Positions 37,997 through 54,052 of a stretch of DNA of 64,000 bases are shown here, piece by piece. How positions within the stretch are numbered: position 1 is the stretch's first letter; each line of letters begins with the position of its first letter. Origin of the DNA: a virus (taxonomy: Duplodnaviria; Caudoviricetes); IMG/VR virus record IMGVR_UViG_3300007512_001664, positions 32,001 to 96,000 of that record; one strand, 5' to 3'. Both the position numbers and the translations under genes were made by a program. The notes below the pieces were generated by a model, which saw only the letters and a program-made list of their open reading frames with translations, searched no databases and had not been told where the DNA came from.

Positions 37997-38206
37997 ATGA
38001 ATGACATGAGCTTGGAGCGAAGAGTATTTATTTGTTTTGTTATTGTGGTCGCATTTTTTTGTAGTGGGTGTTCGTCAACTAAATGGAAATGGTTACCACA
38101 AGAACCATATATAGACGACCAACGCAGAAGCGAGTATTCTCGACTAGATAAAGACCGTAAAGAAGTTGGTGGTGTTCAAATAACTGTATTAAAAGCGAGT
38201 TTCTAA
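37997..38206 (+). CDS. small lipoprotein
   Basis: AFFCSG-C lipobox. Confidence 0.55.
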   Translation: MNDMSLERRVFICFVIVVAFFCSGCSSTKWKWLPQEPYIDDQRRSEYSRLDKDRKEVGGVQITVLKASF

Positions 38207-46165: not shown

Positions 46166-47047
46166 ATGAAAATTGATATAATTTATACTTATTATAATGG
46201 TGACAAGCTACTTGAAAGGTATATCGATCATTGGAATAATAATTTCAATAATGTTAAACATAAAATTAATTTTGTTATAGTAGACGATCATAGTATTGAT
46301 TCATATAAAGCTATAAACACAATAGAAAAAAAAGATATAAATTATAATTTACAATTATATTATGTAGAGGATGATATTTTATGGAACGAGATGGGCGCTC
46401 GTAATTTAGGTGGAAGTCAAACAACGTCAGATATCTTGTTATTTTTAGACTGGGATCATTTGATAACAGAAAATTTAATAAATGAAATCTTTACATGGAC
46501 TTTTAATAATCAAAGTCTTTATCTTTTTTATAAAGCGATGCTTCCGCCCCATCATCCCTTATGGGACGAGGATCCTATAACATTTAGAAAAGTAAAATTA
46601 AATGGTGCAAGCGAGGGTACGCAACACCCGCTTGTTGGTTGTGATTACGATGAATGGTTACAAAAAACAGTCGTTCAACTGAGAGAAAAAAAATCTAAAT
46701 TAAAGTCATTGGATCCTTCTGCTTTTTGTTTATCGAGAGAGTTATGGCATAAGGTAGGAGGGTTTGATGAAGATTTTGCTGGAGGATATGGAGAGTATGA
46801 TCGAACGTTCCGAAAAAATCTCTATAATTATAAAGCAAAAGAAATTACGATGAATAAAACTCCTCTTATCATACTTAAACAAGGTAGAACACGACGTGTT
46901 TTAAGAGCATCGATGGTCGAACGAAATGTTAAAGGTAATAATTACAAGAGAAATAGACAGCTTTATAAGAAAAAAGCTCATAGCTTTTATACTCCGAGCT
47001 CACCAATACGTTTTAAATATACTAAACAATATGAACATTTTATCTAA
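46166..47047 (+). CDS. glycosyltransferase (GT2/GT7-like)
   Basis: IVDDHS...ARNLG...LLFLDWDH...GGFDEDFAGGYGEYD. Confidence 0.8.
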   Translation: MKIDIIYTYYNGDKLLERYIDHWNNNFNNVKHKINFVIVDDHSIDSYKAINTIEKKDINYNLQLYYVEDDILWNEMGARNLGGSQTTSDILLFLDWDHLITENLINEIFTWTFNNQSLYLFYKAMLPPHHPLWDEDPITFRKVKLNGASEGTQHPLVGCDYDEWLQKTVVQLREKKSKLKSLDPSAFCLSRELWHKVGGFDEDFAGGYGEYDRTFRKNLYNYKAKEITMNKTPLIILKQGRTRRVLRASMVERNVKGNNYKRNRQLYKKKAHSFYTPSSPIRFKYTKQYEHFI

Positions 47048-47063
47048 ATATATATAGCATGAT

Positions 47064-48383
47064 ATGAGCTTCGAACCATTCATACAAAATAGAAGAGGAT
47101 TCTTATCTACATTAGCTAAAGGTATAGGAGTACTTGCTAGTCCAGATGCAGTAACAAATGTAGCTAAAGCAGCAGGAAGATCTACACCTAACCAACCTCT
47201 TAAAGCAGGTCTCGGTCATGTATATAGAGCACTCTTAAAAACTACTGGAGACTATCATGAGTATTCGCCGGGATTCAGTATTAAGCAAAGAGAGCATATA
47301 ACTCAGATAGCTATGGCCGCTCTACATAAAGTAGAAAAAGAGGATTGGTCAGATGAAGTTGTAGGCTTTAAGGATATGGTAGGTCACTTTCAATATTATT
47401 TTGATGAAGGAGAATCATTTGAAGATGCGTACACTGCGTTTGAAGATGATAATATGTTTGATATATATGATCTCGTAAAGAAATACGCATATGATTTAAG
47501 AACTGTCGGTTCAGTTGACACAAAAGATCTAACAGATCGTATGGTAAGAGAAATTTCAGATGGAAATGGGTTCGATGATTTTTGGGATACGCTGGCGATG
47601 AAACATGGTCCTAGAGAGCCCGGTGAACAAAGACCAGACGATAGAGATTATTTAGATAAAGATTACGCACAGGGCCCTCATATGAATAGCGCGCAAGTAA
47701 GCTTTAAAGATTTCCACAACCTTAACGAAGCATTCGATAAACCTTATTCATTTAATGTAGATAGCAGCGAGTACCCTCTAACAGTCTATAACTTTACAGT
47801 AGACGACGTCGACGATCCATATACCGTACAAGCCGTATTCGATCCAGTAGATACATTAGATCAATTTATAGAACCAGAGAGAGATAGCGCTGGTATCGCA
47901 AAGCAAGACCACCGCCAAGCGGTTAAACAGGCTGATCGATACATAGCATTTAAGTATCCCAGCGCTATTAAACCAGAATACGCTAAAGTTATTGAATATG
48001 GATTTTCAGATAAAGGATCTGGATCAATCGAGAAAACCGGGAAAGGCGGCCATAGTGCTACTCGTGTCATTGGTACTGTCATACAAATAGCTCAGCATTA
48101 TATGATTACCAGAGAGCCCAAAGTCTTACTCTTTACTGGCGCTAAAGATGAGAATAGAGGCCCTATCTATACTAAACTAACTCACTTGGCATTCAGATCT
48201 CTTAAAGATGGTGCACTGTCTGGTTATAACTACTTCATAGATGACCACCTTAAGGGAGATGTAAGATTTTGGATCTATAAAGAAAAGGATATACCTTACC
48301 TCGGTGACGAGAACTTCCAGGAATTCTTAACTAATGATCGATGGCATCAGCAAAACCCTGGCCTTGATAATGTATACGCATAA
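47064..48383 (+). CDS. modular protein with N-terminal twin-arginine motif and internal leader
   Basis: NRRGFL; internal SFKDFHNLNE-AFDKPY; TAAATA at 47045. Confidence 0.7.
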   Translation: MSFEPFIQNRRGFLSTLAKGIGVLASPDAVTNVAKAAGRSTPNQPLKAGLGHVYRALLKTTGDYHEYSPGFSIKQREHITQIAMAALHKVEKEDWSDEVVGFKDMVGHFQYYFDEGESFEDAYTAFEDDNMFDIYDLVKKYAYDLRTVGSVDTKDLTDRMVREISDGNGFDDFWDTLAMKHGPREPGEQRPDDRDYLDKDYAQGPHMNSAQVSFKDFHNLNEAFDKPYSFNVDSSEYPLTVYNFTVDDVDDPYTVQAVFDPVDTLDQFIEPERDSAGIAKQDHRQAVKQADRYIAFKYPSAIKPEYAKVIEYGFSDKGSGSIEKTGKGGHSATRVIGTVIQIAQHYMITREPKVLLFTGAKDENRGPIYTKLTHLAFRSLKDGALSGYNYFIDDHLKGDVRFWIYKEKDIPYLGDENFQEFLTNDRWHQQNPGLDNVYA

Positions 48384-48968
48384 ATGATACCTTTTAAACA
48401 GTATATTGCTGAGGCAAATCCTAAGTCTCTCATAGTTGTTGATGTTCAACCAGTCTATACTCATCTGATGCAAGATGAAGTAACTGCGATAACAGAGTTC
48501 ATAAACACAAAAGCTGAGAGAGTGCTAGCATATTTTAACGGTGAAGATGCTGGTGAGAGAGATACTTTAGAAGATGTTAAGCAGTGGTACCTTGATAATG
48601 GACTAGAGGAAGAGAGCTTAGCTAAGATAAACTTCCAAGAGAAAACATATGCATACCTTAGAGGGTGGATGGACGATGTGGAGGAGAGGGATATTATAAA
48701 GGTAGTCAGATATATGGTGACTAATAGAATACAACAGTCTGACCAGATAGGTAATAGTGCTATAGTTGAATTATTAGGAATAGATGTAGCTAGGGAAGTT
48801 GATGATATTGATCCTATATACATTCCTGATATTGATCTTTCATTAATTAAACAGTATAACAAATCGTATATTGGTGGTGGAGGGCGCCATGAATGTTTAA
48901 AAGAAATTACTCTTATGATGAATGCATTCAATATTAAATACAAATTAATCAACAATTTCATATATTAA
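48384..48968 (+). CDS. isochorismatase/cysteine-hydrolase-like protein with capsid-targeting-like leader
   Basis: MIPFKQYIAE; SLIVVDVQP; GGGRHECL. Confidence 0.7.
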   Translation: MIPFKQYIAEANPKSLIVVDVQPVYTHLMQDEVTAITEFINTKAERVLAYFNGEDAGERDTLEDVKQWYLDNGLEEESLAKINFQEKTYAYLRGWMDDVEERDIIKVVRYMVTNRIQQSDQIGNSAIVELLGIDVAREVDDIDPIYIPDIDLSLIKQYNKSYIGGGGRHECLKEITLMMNAFNIKYKLINNFIY

Positions 48969-49163
48969 ATGATCCAAGTAAGCTTACGTAAAGATGAGTC
49001 TATCGATAAAGCTCTTAAGAAGCTTAAAAAGAAATTAGATAGAGACAATATACTCAAAGAATGTCGAGATAGACGATATTTCGAAAAACCGTCAGCAAAA
49101 AAGAGACGTAAATTGAAAGAAGCTAAGTTCAAAGCTATGTTAGACGCACGTGATTTTGACTAA
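48969..49163 (+). CDS. rpsU: ribosomal protein bS21
   Basis: VSLRKDESIDKALKKLKKK...LKECRDRRYFEKPSAKKRRK. Confidence 0.9.
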   Translation: MIQVSLRKDESIDKALKKLKKKLDRDNILKECRDRRYFEKPSAKKRRKLKEAKFKAMLDARDFD

Positions 49164-49171
49164 ATACTTAT

Positions 49172-49768
49172 GTGAAGTCATTTATCGATTTTATTAACGA
49201 GGCAGGAAAGTTTCCTACAGTTACATTAACTCAACCGTATTCGCAATCGCGTCCCGGAGCAGGAAAGCGGTTCCGTAATAAGAAAGACCCCAAAAGAGCC
49301 AATCAACAACAAGCTCTAAGAGATCAAGGCTATCGCTGGGATAAAGAAAAGAAAAAATGGGTTAAAGGCACTGTTCCTGTCAGTGCATCAACCGTGGAGT
49401 CTAAACAAGCCAAGTACATTGAAGAAGCCAAAAGAGGTCGTGAGAGTTATGAGACACGTAACCCAGATTTTGTTGATGCTTTATTAGATATTTTTTCTGC
49501 CCTCCAAGATCGAAACATAGAAAAAGGAATGACGTTAAATCGTTTTACAAATCAAGACGTTATTAAACTAATCGATGATCATGAAGTTTATGGTATTAAT
49601 GGCACTAATCCATGGCCTTCACAACATAAGGAGCGTTATATATCTAATCTTCGTCGTCTACTTGGAGTTGAAACACCCGGAAGAAAGCAAAGAAAAGATA
49701 CAGGAAAAGAGCAGGGTACTCATGATACAGGTGATGAATGGTCAGATTGGCTTAAACCGGAAGCATGA
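49172..49768 (+). CDS. basic modular protein with capsid-targeting-like leader
   Basis: MKSFIDFINE-AG. Confidence 0.7.
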   Translation: MKSFIDFINEAGKFPTVTLTQPYSQSRPGAGKRFRNKKDPKRANQQQALRDQGYRWDKEKKKWVKGTVPVSASTVESKQAKYIEEAKRGRESYETRNPDFVDALLDIFSALQDRNIEKGMTLNRFTNQDVIKLIDDHEVYGINGTNPWPSQHKERYISNLRRLLGVETPGRKQRKDTGKEQGTHDTGDEWSDWLKPEA

Positions 49769-51141
49769 GAGATACAGAAGCACAACTAATTTTTGAGACT
49801 TACGTAGAAGCAAAGGATGTAAGTCGACGAGATTTCTTTAAGCTATTAGGTAGAGGTGCTGCAACAGTCGCGACAGTTCCTTGGACTAAACTACTATCAG
49901 CTCCTAAGTTAGCTGCAGCAGTCACAGCACCATTTAAGATTGGTGCAGGTACTATACTTAATCCTCAGGCTCTGCATTGGTACTACGTTCGTAAGTTTGT
50001 TAACAAAGCAGAGGAAAGCGGTCTCACTCCAGTAGATGTAACAGATGAAAGGCATTACGAGGACCCAGTCGACGAGATATCTTTTGAAGCATTTGAGTGG
50101 GTTTCCAAGAATGTAATTAATATGTATGTTGATGATCGAGATCATGCTGTAGATAGAGAAGGAGACACGATAGCACCCACTATGGCTGAGTTGATCAATG
50201 ATCACGGATGGGATGAAGAGCATTTTATAGATGATCCTAATTTTCCGGAATGGGCGAAACCTCTTCTCACTAAAGATGAAGAAGATATGACTGATGAAGA
50301 GGAAGAAAAATATCAGAACTTAATGAATTCAAAGTGGTTTGATAAGCAGATGGTGATTAACTGGGATGGTGAGCAGGGCCATGGAGCTGATGAAGAGGTA
50401 GAAGAAATGCTAAGAAATTGGACTGGGTGGCATCACAAGTCGCCAGGGTCAGGTGATGTCGGGGGCCCCCTTCATGGTGATGAACTTATTACTACTGTCT
50501 TTGATTACATTGTAGATCTCAATCGCAAACGTAATGATGAGGGAAAGTTTATGGACATTAATGAGATAATGAAGATGGACTTTAAACAAGAGTTCTTACC
50601 TGGTGTTGTAAAGTATGCGAGAGAGCTGGCTGTAGCTCGATCAACTCGGTTGACAGGAAACCAACAGAGACAAGCAGGGCAAGATTTTCAAAAAGCTAAA
50701 GACGAGCTACAAAAAGACTACCTACCTAAAAGACCAGGCCAACCAGCTGAGTGGGATGATGTACATCCGGATGTTGAATGGTGGCACGAAGGTGATTTTA
50801 AATGGTGGGAGCGTCGGTTTGATGATGATGTTATTAATAGTGATAAGATCGAACAATATAAGGTTTTTGCTGATAAAATAATACAGAATCCTTTCGAAGA
50901 CGGCTTACTGTGGCCAACCACTGGGGAACCAGCTTATAGCCCTGAAGAAAGCAAAGCGATAATTAAAAAACTTAAACAAGAAGCACATGATTGGTTGAAA
51001 TGGTATGAGATGACAAAGGATAGTAGAAAGCCTAATCAAGCACATATCAAACATCCATATGGAGTAGGTAGACCTCAGAGCGGTTTACAAACAGCTAGTA
51101 CTAAGCCTACATTTAAACAGTTCTTTTTAATAAATAATTAA
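49765..51141 (+). CDS. acidic protein: type-B leader, twin-arginine motif, C-terminal TFKQFF
   Basis: MRDTEAQLIFETYVE-AKDVSRRDFFKLLG...PTFKQFFLINN. Confidence 0.75.
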   Translation: MRDTEAQLIFETYVEAKDVSRRDFFKLLGRGAATVATVPWTKLLSAPKLAAAVTAPFKIGAGTILNPQALHWYYVRKFVNKAEESGLTPVDVTDERHYEDPVDEISFEAFEWVSKNVINMYVDDRDHAVDREGDTIAPTMAELINDHGWDEEHFIDDPNFPEWAKPLLTKDEEDMTDEEEEKYQNLMNSKWFDKQMVINWDGEQGHGADEEVEEMLRNWTGWHHKSPGSGDVGGPLHGDELITTVFDYIVDLNRKRNDEGKFMDINEIMKMDFKQEFLPGVVKYARELAVARSTRLTGNQQRQAGQDFQKAKDELQKDYLPKRPGQPAEWDDVHPDVEWWHEGDFKWWERRFDDDVINSDKIEQYKVFADKIIQNPFEDGLLWPTTGEPAYSPEESKAIIKKLKQEAHDWLKWYEMTKDSRKPNQAHIKHPYGVGRPQSGLQTASTKPTFKQFFLINN

Positions 51142-51142
51142 G

Positions 51143-51466
51143 ATGAACGAACTTAGCAATGCAGTAACACCAACGTTTAATAAGGTAATTAAGCGTTTAT
51201 CTGAAGTAGAAGATGGTGATGCTTTATCAATAGCTAATGGTCATGTAAAAAATACCCCCAGTCTTGAGGGAACGCCTACAGTATATACACTTGATCCAGC
51301 AGATGGTAATTCTGGTATAGTACAATATTCAATGAAAAGAGAATCTGGCGGTGGATCAATGGTAGTAATTGTTAGAGAGGGTCAAGTTATCTGGTCTGGA
51401 ATTTCTATTGAAAGAGTAAGCAACATTGCAAATGCAGCGTTAATGAGCCCGGGAATAGGTAAATAA
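51143..51466 (+). CDS. hypothetical protein
   Basis: TAAATA upstream. Confidence 0.6.
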   Translation: MNELSNAVTPTFNKVIKRLSEVEDGDALSIANGHVKNTPSLEGTPTVYTLDPADGNSGIVQYSMKRESGGGSMVVIVREGQVIWSGISIERVSNIANAALMSPGIGK

Positions 51467-51474
51467 TTAGAACA

Positions 51475-52269
51475 ATGAAGTATGATACAGAAGCACAATT
51501 AATTTGGGAAGCCGCGCAAAAGAAGAGGTCACCTGTTGAAGAAGGTAAACCACACAATTGCGCTACACACGTAGAGCATTCTAAGTGGGGTAAAGGTGAA
51601 TGTATTTCAGAGAGCCATGCTGAACCAGATGAAAATGGTAATGTAGCCTGGTATAATGTTGTATTTGAACACGGCACTGAGACAGTCAATACTGCTGATG
51701 TTAAAGTGCTTAAATCTAGTCATCATATGCACGCTAGTCATAATCCTATTAAAATTAGTAAAAATCGAGGTGAATATGCTTTGCGAATGAGAGCTGATGG
51801 ATGGCAACGTTGTCCGCATAATTGTATTCCAGATGATGGTAATCCTCCTACATATCGACATGTCGATGGTGTGCCTTGTCCAGAGTGTGAAGGAAAAGGA
51901 TATGTTACTTCAGACCATATAAAATCTACCGATAGGCCAGTGCAAGTGCCACCAAACCCCAAAACCGATGAGTTCGGTCGAGCTAAAGGTGATATTGGCC
52001 ATATGTATGCTTCTACTAAATCAGATCCAAGTAAATTAACAGAAGCAAGCCCAGATGATAATTTTGCCGCTAGCCAGTCAATGATATCAGCAATATATAA
52101 AGAAATTGATGAGTATATGACTCGAGCAGGAGCCGAGGATTTAAAAGATAACGTACTTGCTATTGTTAAGCAATATTTGGAGGGGCCGATAATATCGACT
52201 CCACCTAGCAGTAGCGATTACAGTGGCAAGGCAATTGCAAATCCTTATACACCTTACCCGACAGGATAA
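51475..52269 (+). CDS. type-B leader modular protein (His-rich module, CxxCxGxG, shared C-terminal module)
   Basis: MKYDTEAQLIWE; HNCATHVEH...; CPECEGKG; KEIDEYMT module. Confidence 0.7.
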   Translation: MKYDTEAQLIWEAAQKKRSPVEEGKPHNCATHVEHSKWGKGECISESHAEPDENGNVAWYNVVFEHGTETVNTADVKVLKSSHHMHASHNPIKISKNRGEYALRMRADGWQRCPHNCIPDDGNPPTYRHVDGVPCPECEGKGYVTSDHIKSTDRPVQVPPNPKTDEFGRAKGDIGHMYASTKSDPSKLTEASPDDNFAASQSMISAIYKEIDEYMTRAGAEDLKDNVLAIVKQYLEGPIISTPPSSSDYSGKAIANPYTPYPTG

Positions 52270-52274
52270 TAGCC

Positions 52275-52589
52275 ATGAAAGATAAAGACGCACAACTAAT
52301 GATGGAAGCCTTACAAAAGCAAAAAGTAAATGAAGCTGACTATTATGAAGATGACAATAGTACTGACACATATTTACAGTGGAAACTCGCAGAAGACAGA
52401 TGGCATGAAAAATTAGCTGACTTAGAACCTCTTGATGAGCTTGCAGCGCGCTATGGTGGTGAAGATATTAATCCAGCTGGTGGTAACATAAAGGGTGGTA
52501 ATATCATTGATTGGCTAGCTAAACAGATCAACCAACCAGGTTCGGACTTTGTTGGTTATTTTGAGCAGCAACTTATGAAAGAGCAATAG
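52275..52589 (+). CDS. type-B leader cassette protein
   Basis: MKDKDAQLMMEALQKQKVNE-A. Confidence 0.75.
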   Translation: MKDKDAQLMMEALQKQKVNEADYYEDDNSTDTYLQWKLAEDRWHEKLADLEPLDELAARYGGEDINPAGGNIKGGNIIDWLAKQINQPGSDFVGYFEQQLMKEQ

Positions 52590-52590
52590 T

Positions 52591-52863
52591 ATGAGAGATA
52601 AAGACGCACATTTAATGATGGAAGCCTTACGACTACAAGAAGATAGTCTAGACGATCAACTTGATGACGCTGGTAATGTGATACAACCAGATAATTTATC
52701 ACAAAGAATAGATGCTCTTGAAGCAGAAGTAGCACAACTAAAAGTAACAGTTAGTCGGAATAATTTAATAGGACTTATAAAGGATACTGTAATGGGTATA
52801 TTGACAACAGTTTTGCCATTCGCAGTCGGTAAACCTATACAAGATCCTAATATAAAACGATGA
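52591..52863 (+). CDS. type-B leader cassette protein
   Basis: MRDKDAHLMMEALRLQE-D. Confidence 0.75.
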   Translation: MRDKDAHLMMEALRLQEDSLDDQLDDAGNVIQPDNLSQRIDALEAEVAQLKVTVSRNNLIGLIKDTVMGILTTVLPFAVGKPIQDPNIKR

Positions 52864-53357
52864 GAGATAAAGACGCACATTTAATGATGGAAGCTTTACA
52901 AAAGGTGAATGAAGCTGAGCAAGATACACCTAGCGCTACAGCAGAAGTCCTACGACAAGTGCATAAAGAAATTGATGAGTATATGACTACGGCTGTATTT
53001 ACCGTAGGTGGTGAGGATTTAAAATGGAACGTACTTGCTATTATCAAGCAATATTTGACCGATAACCCGTCCGCCTTGCCGACGACCCCACGTGGATATG
53101 ATGAACCGTCAAATGAACCGTCAAATGATCCGTTGCAACGTGTCGCTAACTTAGCTATAGATAAAATATCAGACGGCGCACTCTCTAACCTTTCAATCAA
53201 TGATATTATTGATGTGTCTATAGAAGATATCGAGTCTGAGACAGGTGAACGACAATATGATCTTAATGAACCTAACACTCGTGATAGAATTAAAAATATA
53301 ATGATTACTGCGTTAACTAAAGATCGAAGCCATTTAATGAAAGGATATGAACGATGA
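52860..53357 (+). CDS. type-B leader cassette protein
   Basis: MRDKDAHLMMEALQKVNE-A. Confidence 0.75.
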   Translation: MRDKDAHLMMEALQKVNEAEQDTPSATAEVLRQVHKEIDEYMTTAVFTVGGEDLKWNVLAIIKQYLTDNPSALPTTPRGYDEPSNEPSNDPLQRVANLAIDKISDGALSNLSINDIIDVSIEDIESETGERQYDLNEPNTRDRIKNIMITALTKDRSHLMKGYER

Positions 53358-53758
53358 AAGATAAAGATGCACAACTAATGATGGAAGCTTTAAAAGAAGC
53401 TGTAGGTGATTATACGGACGACCCAACTGCCGATGATGGTGGAGCAGCAGCCCAGCGCCGCACCGGTGCGTGGTTAAATGCCTATGCACCTCGCGATGAG
53501 GGATTCGGTGGTGACTTTTTTGGCTTTTTTAATAGTATCGAATTTGACGAGGCCGGCGCTCATGCGCTGGTGCAATGGTTAACACAATATAAACAAAACT
53601 ATACAGGCCCAAATGTCGACCATCCAACACGGAAGCCGCCGCATGCACAGGGCTATCAGACTCGAGACCAGTATGACGCGGATGAAGCTGAGCGAGCGCG
53701 AGCGGATCGCGAAGCAGAAGCTCGGCCAGGCAGGCAACATGGCGGCTATCCGGGATAG
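53354..53758 (+). CDS. type-B leader cassette protein
   Basis: MKDKDAQLMMEALKE-A. Confidence 0.75.
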   Translation: MKDKDAQLMMEALKEAVGDYTDDPTADDGGAAAQRRTGAWLNAYAPRDEGFGGDFFGFFNSIEFDEAGAHALVQWLTQYKQNYTGPNVDHPTRKPPHAQGYQTRDQYDADEAERARADREAEARPGRQHGGYPG

Positions 53759-53785
53759 CAGGATACAGATAAGATTAATAATACA

Positions 53786-54052
53786 ATGAGAGATAAAGAC
53801 GCACAACTAATTTGGGAAACGCTTCAAGGTGCACCAGCGCCTTTACCAGTTGATAGAAATGGTAAAGAAATACAAGTAGGTGATATAATTCAAGGAGAAG
53901 CTCCTTCTAGGAATGAACCAACACCTGAGTTTGTTGTAGTAGGCGTTAGTCGTGATCCGAATATTGAAGATGCTATAAGTGTAGTTCCACTGGATGTTAA
54001 GACACAATCAGCTAAATGGTTTAGTGTTGTTGATAGTATAGGAGGTAATTAA
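53786..54052 (+). CDS. type-B leader cassette protein (SH3/YopX-like DxNGKEIxVGD motif)
   Basis: MRDKDAQLIWETL; VDRNGKEIQVGDII. Confidence 0.7.
   Translation: MRDKDAQLIWETLQGAPAPLPVDRNGKEIQVGDIIQGEAPSRNEPTPEFVVVGVSRDPNIEDAISVVPLDVKTQSAKWFSVVDSIGGN

Follow-up and report, generated by a model that had tools for sequence, protein, structure and literature searches.

Two genes of a marine phage raise the question of why a twin-arginine motif, which resembles the signals read by the host twin-arginine translocation (Tat) pathway, should stand at the start of proteins that may be bound for the phage head. The DNA analyzed here, which we call the window, is a stretch of 64,000 nucleotides (bases 32001-96000 of the 200,819-bp viral record IMGVR_UViG_3300007512_001664, which has direct terminal repeats) and comes from a complete uncultured marine phage. 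We name its genes by their first positions in the window; the two in question are 49765 and 47064. An earlier note on this DNA, made from its letters alone, had read both genes as capsid-type leaders followed directly by a Tat motif and had proposed that their products are packaged, injected into the next host and then passed to Tat. We find that a leader, a protease site, an invariant twin-arginine module and a cargo form a real, conserved and repeated architecture. Judged from its sequence, 49765 may encode a protein that is packed inside the capsid and then injected, with a capsid-targeting propeptide masking its Tat-type signal; we give this reading a probability of roughly 0.4.

Architecture and conservation of gene 49765

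Both reading frames and both N-termini are exactly as the earlier note quoted them, and the bodies behind the motifs are indeed large and acidic, with an isoelectric point (pI) of 4.76 in 49765 and 4.90 in 47064. In 49765 the arginine pair, R21-R22, lies within S-R-R-D-F-F-K and is followed by G-R-G-A-A in a Gly/Ala-rich stretch. After this stretch the module contains an invariant P-W-T..L-S-x-P, three alanines at residues 50-52 and then an invariant V..A-P-F..G-A. The acidic body, which is described as helical, begins at residue 63. Directly before the module is the sequence Y-V-E/A at residues 13-16 (the slash marks the predicted cut), which is the only hydrophobic-x-E-[AGS] site in the 458 residues of this protein. 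At the other end is a conserved motif, H-P-Y-G-V-G..P-Q-S..L-Q-T..T-F-K, that finishes with a leader-like F-K-E-F-F. The coordinates of these and other features are collected in Table 1.

The family set for 49765 comprises 17 database clusters and 33 metagenome loci, and 16 of the 17 homologs include the N-terminus. The earlier note had staked its proposal on conservation of the arginine pair in homologs, and neither arginine is missing from any of the 16 database homologs with an N-terminus or from any of the 33 metagenome loci. The residues R21, R22, F24, G31, P39, W40, T41, L43, S45 and P47 are invariant across the homologs, as are V53, A55, P56, F57, G60, A61, N66 and P67. Among 24 DNA versions of the module locus we counted 14 different Arg codon pairs, with neither arginine lost in any version. 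Thus, selection acts on the protein. Mean pairwise identity within the family is 73% for the module, 48% for the leader, 49% for the body and 84% for the C-terminal motif. The arginine pair always lies 1-5 residues past the hydrophobic-x-E-[AGQ] end of a leader, and this is so behind four unrelated leader types. A Met is found two residues before the pair (M-[SDN]-R-R) in 12 of 20 module variants (L018, L021, L033, L037-L039 and L045 among the loci). This Met may be a relic of the start of an ancestral Tat precursor, or an alternative start. The window copy has Val at this position, and past its codon 1 no further start codon lies in frame ahead of the arginine pair.

The pattern RR-x-F-[LFIMV] occurs six times in all open reading frames of at least 80 codons in this 200-kb genome. 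Three of the six occurrences are N-terminal, namely those in 49765, in 47064 and in a DUF1552/HXXSHH protein (414 aa, 263 bits) that is encoded outside the window (L014:971-2215, corresponding to genome 128970-130214). The motif in 49765 is therefore more than chance. The DUF1552 protein begins M-N-R-R-Q-F-I followed by 15 uncharged residues and has the look of an ordinary, phage-borne Tat substrate.

The family is small. A full hidden Markov model scan of 1.8 billion representatives returned only 11 proteins, and all related contigs come from marine metagenomes. Pfam and PHROGs hold no family for 49765 or 47064, and a sequence search of the PDB gave no match. Scanning IMG/VR with the N-terminal module returned nothing outside the phage's own genome; two partial relatives end at a contig edge, without the N-terminal module. 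Using tblastn, we found no paralogue of the module or of the C-terminal motif in the phage's own genome, indicating that the module is not a copy of a capsid protein segment. AlphaFold2 modelled 49765 with a mean predicted local distance difference test score (pLDDT) of 59.6 and a predicted template modelling (TM) score of 0.42, and pLDDT was below 50 for residues 1-63. Fold searches with 49765 against the ESM Atlas (TM ≤0.27) and the PDB (Z ≤6, generic helical bundles) indicated no function.

The phage is T4-like. Its genome encodes a gp21-type prohead protease (PF03420, 104 bits, genome 7015-7467) and a gp23 capsid protein, the gene for which adjoins a scaffold gene. Compared with cultured phages, the capsid protein reaches no more than about 31-38% identity, with cyanophages giving the best matches, which places this phage in a remote lineage. 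In T4, gp21 cleaves after Glu. The scaffold protein of the present phage (genome 7780-8664, L003:217-1101) contains eight hydrophobic-x-E-[AS] sites in 294 residues. Its density of hydrophobic-x-E-[AGS] sites is the maximum for the genome, at 2.72 per 100 aa compared to a genome mean of 0.37, a 7-fold difference. The capsid protein has a single such site, at residue 60, and five of the ten open reading frames that rank next in density after the scaffold belong to the locus of leader-bearing genes that includes 49765. This distribution fits a T4-like cleavage rule. The density of sites in the scaffold also provides a handle on protease specificity in a remote relative of T4.

The same unit recurs within longer proteins. 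At 15 of the 33 loci there are at least 144 open codons upstream of the arginine pair. One open reading frame (L021:839-4486) encodes 1215 aa, with three units that have their arginine pairs at residues 15, 238 and 571 and, after these units, helix-turn-helix repeats. Two units each are present in L039:1325-4099, P0002 and P0023. Across these polyproteins, units are found at residues 238, 303, 456, 563 and 571. Where units are fused, the C-terminal motif of one passes straight into the leader of the next, so that the end of the motif (T-F-K-E-F-F-N-E-A) doubles as a leader. We rejected the idea that the fusions are gene-calling artefacts because the reading frames are unbroken under the standard code and occur on several independent contigs. 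For an internal twin-arginine motif to act as an N-terminal signal, the polyprotein would have to be cut at the junctions between units.

The genomic context is structural, with more distant versions of the unit found among the tail sheath and tube genes of other myoviruses. One of these, P0028, belongs to another family and contains three units that share little besides an E-A junction followed by x-N-R-R-D-F-L-K-K and a conserved C-terminal motif. A single-unit relative, L016, is located between the sheath and tube genes. A further candidate, P0026, is a repetitive eukaryote-like protein and was rejected as spurious. Two of the polyprotein reading frames (L021:839-4486 and L013:1466-4507) end in at least four helix-turn-helix repeats, and these are joined to the last twin-arginine unit by a leader-like C-terminal motif. 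This junction suggests that a DNA-binding product may be released from the same precursor.

A predicted relay from head to Tat and its alternatives

The leader and its site have a precedent in T4. The internal proteins known as IPI, IPII and IPIII, together with Alt, likewise have a short N-terminal leader that ends in hydrophobic-x-Glu and is cut by a gp21-type protease; in the present phage this cleavage is predicted. As in the new locus, one leader in T4 is placed on unrelated proteins that cluster in a variable locus, and each T4 internal protein is cut once. Within the T4 capsid-targeting sequence, residues 4 and 7 are reported as important in targeting and residues 8 and 10 in processing. 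The C-terminus of T4 Alt is also processed, which would fit the leader-like C-terminal motif of 49765. By contrast, the bodies have no sequence relation to those of T4 and are acidic rather than basic. The new system also differs in having a second leader type, polyprotein units and a twin-arginine module after the predicted cut site. We searched the literature for links between twin-arginine motifs and ejected, capsid-internal or virion proteins and found nothing relevant.

On the T4 analogy and the statistics of the sites, the N-terminal leader would bring a late 49765 precursor into the core of the prohead, and the gp21-type protease would cut this precursor once after Y-V-E15. This cut would remove the acidic leader and leave A-K-D-V-S-R-R-D-F-F-K as the new N-terminus, placing the twin-arginine motif 3-5 residues behind the new end. 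As with the internal proteins of T4, the cut protein would stay in the head and enter the next host with the DNA. The final step is suggested by likeness to Tat signals: the exposed twin-arginine module could take the injected protein to the TatBC receptor at the inner membrane, where the endpoint might be full export, anchoring or lasting receptor binding. It is possible, if doubtful, that some myoviruses use such a two-address relay to bring effector proteins to the envelope of a cell they have just infected. In these, the propeptide would load and mask the protein, the head protease would unmask it and free the units of polyproteins, and the host Tat pathway would export the refolded protein or anchor it at the inner membrane before phage gene expression.

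According to a recent review of Tat, the consensus is polar-R-R-x-hydrophobic-hydrophobic with a positive n-region. The motif is present as S-R-R-D-F-F in 49765 and N-R-R-G-F-L in 47064. Like the Tat signal peptides described by TIGR01409 and PF10518, the module has polar-R-R-x-F-L-K, a Gly/Ala-rich stretch, and a Pro and a basic residue before small residues. With the predicted cut made, about 37 residues would remain, a typical length for such peptides. TIGR01409, which has a curated cut-off of 16.7 bits, matched 16 of 18 isolated modules. Five homologs scored singly gave 13.8 to 26.6 bits, with four above the cut-off (26.6, 23.5, 22.7 and 18.8), and in the other family the units of P0028 gave 15.4-17.6 bits and L016 gave 16.1-16.5. 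The n-regions of the precursors have a net charge of -1 to -4, which becomes 0 to -2, plus a free amine, after the predicted cut; the segment from the new N-terminus through the Lys behind the arginine pair is then +2 or +3 in most. Thus, it is only after the predicted cut that the n-region would match the Tat type, and this change in charge fits a masking role for the leader. In the window protein, P-K-L-A-A-A (residues 47-52) precedes V53. With their Pro, Lys and three alanines, some 37 residues from the predicted new N-terminus, these residues are a plausible signal-peptidase region. An [AL]-x-[AS] of some kind also follows the invariant Pro in most homologs, at no fixed site. The neighbors of the module in a protein language model are Tat-signal fragments, all below 0.85, which we treat as a lead only. 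A complex prediction for the processed peptide with Escherichia coli TatC and TatB(1-55) had a score of 0.00 and counts neither way.

Other findings weigh against the proposed relay. With TIGR01409 the window module of 49765 reached 16.6 bits, 0.1 under the cut-off, and the full protein reached 8.8, and 47064 was not matched at all. The N-terminus of the phage's own DUF1552 protein was also unmatched, and a TIGR01409 miss therefore means little. For PF10518, which has a curated cut-off of 22.7 bits, the best E-value among the 18 modules was 0.016 and the window copy scored 9.8 bits. In Tat signals the motif is followed by an uncharged hydrophobic stretch of at least about 12-13 residues. By our implementation of this rule, 49765 and most homologs fall short, and the core is divided by a conserved Arg/Lys (G-[RK]-G). 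Uncharged runs extend to at most 11 residues in 49765 and in most homologs, to 17 in three variants, to 15-18 in P0028 and to 8 in 47064, confirming the view of the earlier note that these hydrophobic regions are weak and interrupted by charge. A core that is short and split argues for an atypical outcome at Tat. The invariance of P-W-T, L-S-x-P and A-P-F is unusual for a signal peptide, and the module appears far too conserved for a simple signal. Such conservation points to a specific partner, which need not be TatBC. Placement inside polyproteins would also be expected of a domain that is not a signal. Finally, megablast and tblastn found no relatives of 49765 among 50,697 cultured phage records.

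The differences from Tat signals thus include an acidic removable leader in front of the module, or a position deep inside polyproteins (the arginine pair is at residues 21-22 and 10-11 in the window proteins and at 238-571 within polyproteins), and a module that is much more conserved than the mature part. Tat signal peptides are under strong constraint when they are also read by proofreading chaperones such as TorD, DmsD and NapD. The constraint on the 49765 module is similarly unusual, although the context is a phage head and not the assembly of redox enzymes. SlyD and leader-binding proteins are also known to bind Tat signal peptides.

Several of these observations would be explained if Tat made no use of the module at all and the module were instead a conserved peptide, active in docking or at membranes, whose likeness to a Tat motif is incidental. 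Such a peptide could bind the scaffold core, the portal or DNA in the head, or could insert into the inner membrane at ejection and help DNA across. This would suit a module that is the best-conserved part of the protein besides the C-terminus, that holds Pro, Trp and Thr invariant at fixed spacing and that breaks its hydrophobic core with a conserved basic residue. It would also suit units that are often internal in long reading frames, genes that lie among tail genes in other myoviruses and the absence of a confident AlphaFold2 structure for residues 1-63, as expected of a linear motif. However, when three divergent families are compared (the 49765 type, the P0028/L016 type and, as the third, the first L021 unit), the part in common is precisely the Tat consensus (polar-R-R-x-F-L-K with a Gly/Ala/Ser-rich stretch), and it is the rest of the module that differs. 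In addition, most leader-bearing genes of the locus do not have the module, which would thus not be needed for packaging, and the module has no similarity to other proteins of the genome. We regard this explanation as rather unlikely. We consider it improbable that 49765 is instead an ordinary late protein that is exported by Tat from the producing cell and is not packaged. Its leader would then be a long n-region, or have another role, or be bypassed by an internal Met start, and the protein would act at the envelope, where it might exclude superinfection, mask receptors or control lysis. Use of the Met found in 12 of the 20 variants as a start would give a textbook Tat N-terminus, the arginine pair is within the first 35 residues in both window proteins, and with its DUF1552 protein the phage appears to rely on host Tat. 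Yet this gives no reason for keeping a protease-type site before the arginine pair behind four different leaders and leaves the internal polyprotein units unexplained. It also sits poorly with the lack of an internal start in the window gene, with net acidic precursor n-regions and with a leader that is common to six proteins lacking an export motif.

The earlier note had itself raised the alternative of a decoy, in which the injected and processed module binds TatC, cannot be translocated and blocks host Tat export. An intact TatC-recognized motif with a short hydrophobic core and a conserved positive charge could have these properties, and a module that binds tightly to a conserved host receptor might well be as highly conserved as this one. 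On the other hand, a plug would need neither a large conserved acidic body of 400 residues nor a conserved C-terminal motif, and the DUF1552 protein seems to need a working Tat pathway. We think a decoy very improbable.

The usual view places the action of phage-injected proteins in the cytoplasm or at the site of entry. If the relay from head to Tat is correct, injected proteins could contain a second address for onward passage to the periplasm or membrane. This would be a new kind of protease-activated Tat signal and a means of phage delivery of folded cargo to the periplasm. It would also give phages a new way to take over the host early, exclude superinfection or evade defence. Even without Tat, a conserved module directly after the cut site and the polyprotein organization of predicted injected proteins both look undescribed. 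In AvrPphB-family type III effectors, self-cleavage exposes a lipidation site. The logic is alike, in that a cut makes a cryptic address of an injected protein N-terminal and functional in the recipient cell, but the machinery, signal and organisms differ and we draw this as an analogy only.

The two-part gene 47064

Gene 47064 is a weaker case than 49765. Its arginine pair, R10-R11, is within N-R-R-G-F-L (47091-47096). The proposal of a capsid-type leader with a cutting site in front of the arginine pair holds for 49765, where the type B leader ends in Y-V-E/A, and fails for 47064, where the N-terminus reads F-I-Q-N and there is no Glu cutting site before the pair. Similarly, exposure of the motif by cleavage is predicted for 49765 and its family but has no place in 47064, where the pair is already at residues 10-11. 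The spacing from the pair to P-hydrophobic-K-x-G-x-G in 47064 is that of the 49765 family. Comparison of the first 50 residues with the 49765-type module gave an E-value of 4e-4 against P0004 (BLASTP, single comparison) and a probability of 16% with hhalign, and the alignment has a four-residue gap where the E-A site would be. We weakly infer from these similarities that the N-terminal half is a degenerate copy of the module, with the arginine pair natively near the N-terminus, and may belong, in degenerate form, to the same type of protein as 49765. A homolog search with the N-terminal 200 residues found only one twin, which is 98% identical.

The C-terminal half (window 47730-48380, + strand) belongs to a family of phage proteins of about 220-275 aa with many invariant residues, such as T-G-K-x-G and L-L-F-T-G-A-K. 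In relatives it is a separate gene that starts with its own T4-type leader ending in E-A. Structure neighbors in the Atlas pointed to a GNAT- or Alt-like fold for this half, which we did not adopt given the low TM. The AlphaFold2 model of 47064 had a pLDDT of 35 and was unusable.

The leader locus and other genes of the phage

The type B leader is common to seven genes from 49765 to 54052 that have unrelated bodies, and a T4-type leader is present on 48384 and 49172, in register with the T4 capsid-targeting sequence at positions 4, 7, 8 and 10. This gives nine leader-bearing genes (seven type B, two T4-type) within 48384-54052, and the gene sets at the same place differ in relatives. The bS21 gene is the conserved left neighbor of the twin-arginine gene on related contigs (L006, L009 and L013). 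The earlier note had also placed both genes in a late block marked by TAAATA. We found NTAAATA 12-27 nt upstream of five genes (44158, 47064, 49172, 51143 and 51475). The full octamer, TATAAATA, is not enriched within the window.

Table 1. Features of the leader locus and of genes 47064 and 49765 (window positions)
Feature	Position	Strand	Remarks
CTAAATA, late-promoter-like	47044..47050	+	20 nt upstream of 47064; consensus match alone
Two-part 439-aa protein gene (47064)	47064..48383	+	N-half 1-222, C-half 223-439
Degenerate twin-arginine module (putative)	47064..47216	+	leader's aromatic-x-x-aromatic-Ile kept, Glu-Ala cut site missing
Internal L-N-E/A, residues 220-223	47721..47732	+	corresponds to leader end of free-standing C-domain genes in relatives
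194-aa protein, T4-type leader	48384..48968	+	aromatic 4 and 7, Ile 8, Glu 10, Ala 11
Ribosomal protein bS21 homolog	48969..49163	+	PF01165, 63 bits; inside leader locus
CTAAATA before 49172	49160-49166	+	same heptamer as upstream of 47064
198-aa protein, GTG start, T4-type leader ending I-N-E/A	49172..49768	+	translationally coupled to 49765
Twin-arginine protein gene, 458 aa (49765)	49765..51141	+	ATG overlaps stop of upstream gene (ATGA)
Leader, type B, residues 1-15	49765..49809	+	ends Y-V-E/A
Twin-arginine module, residues 16-70	49810..49974	+	arginine pair at 49825-49830
Conserved C-terminal motif, residues 428-454	51046..51126	+	ten invariant residues
Array of six further type B leader genes	51475..54052	+	internal-protein-like locus; among the genome's richest genes in protease-type sites

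A small open reading frame at window 37997-38206 (+ strand) carries a signal of the lipoprotein type, in which S-G-C comes after a hydrophobic core. Conventional export without a capsid-type leader is therefore also represented among the proteins of the phage. The closest genomic relative of the DUF1552 protein is in a metagenome-assembled genome of the Chthoniobacteraceae (Verrucomicrobiota), at 39% identity, a weak hint at the host. Two neighboring 330-aa proteins with prepilin-type N-terminal methylation motifs (PF07963) are encoded at window 31416-33385 (- strand); these are unusual cargo for a phage and possibly another hint at the host.

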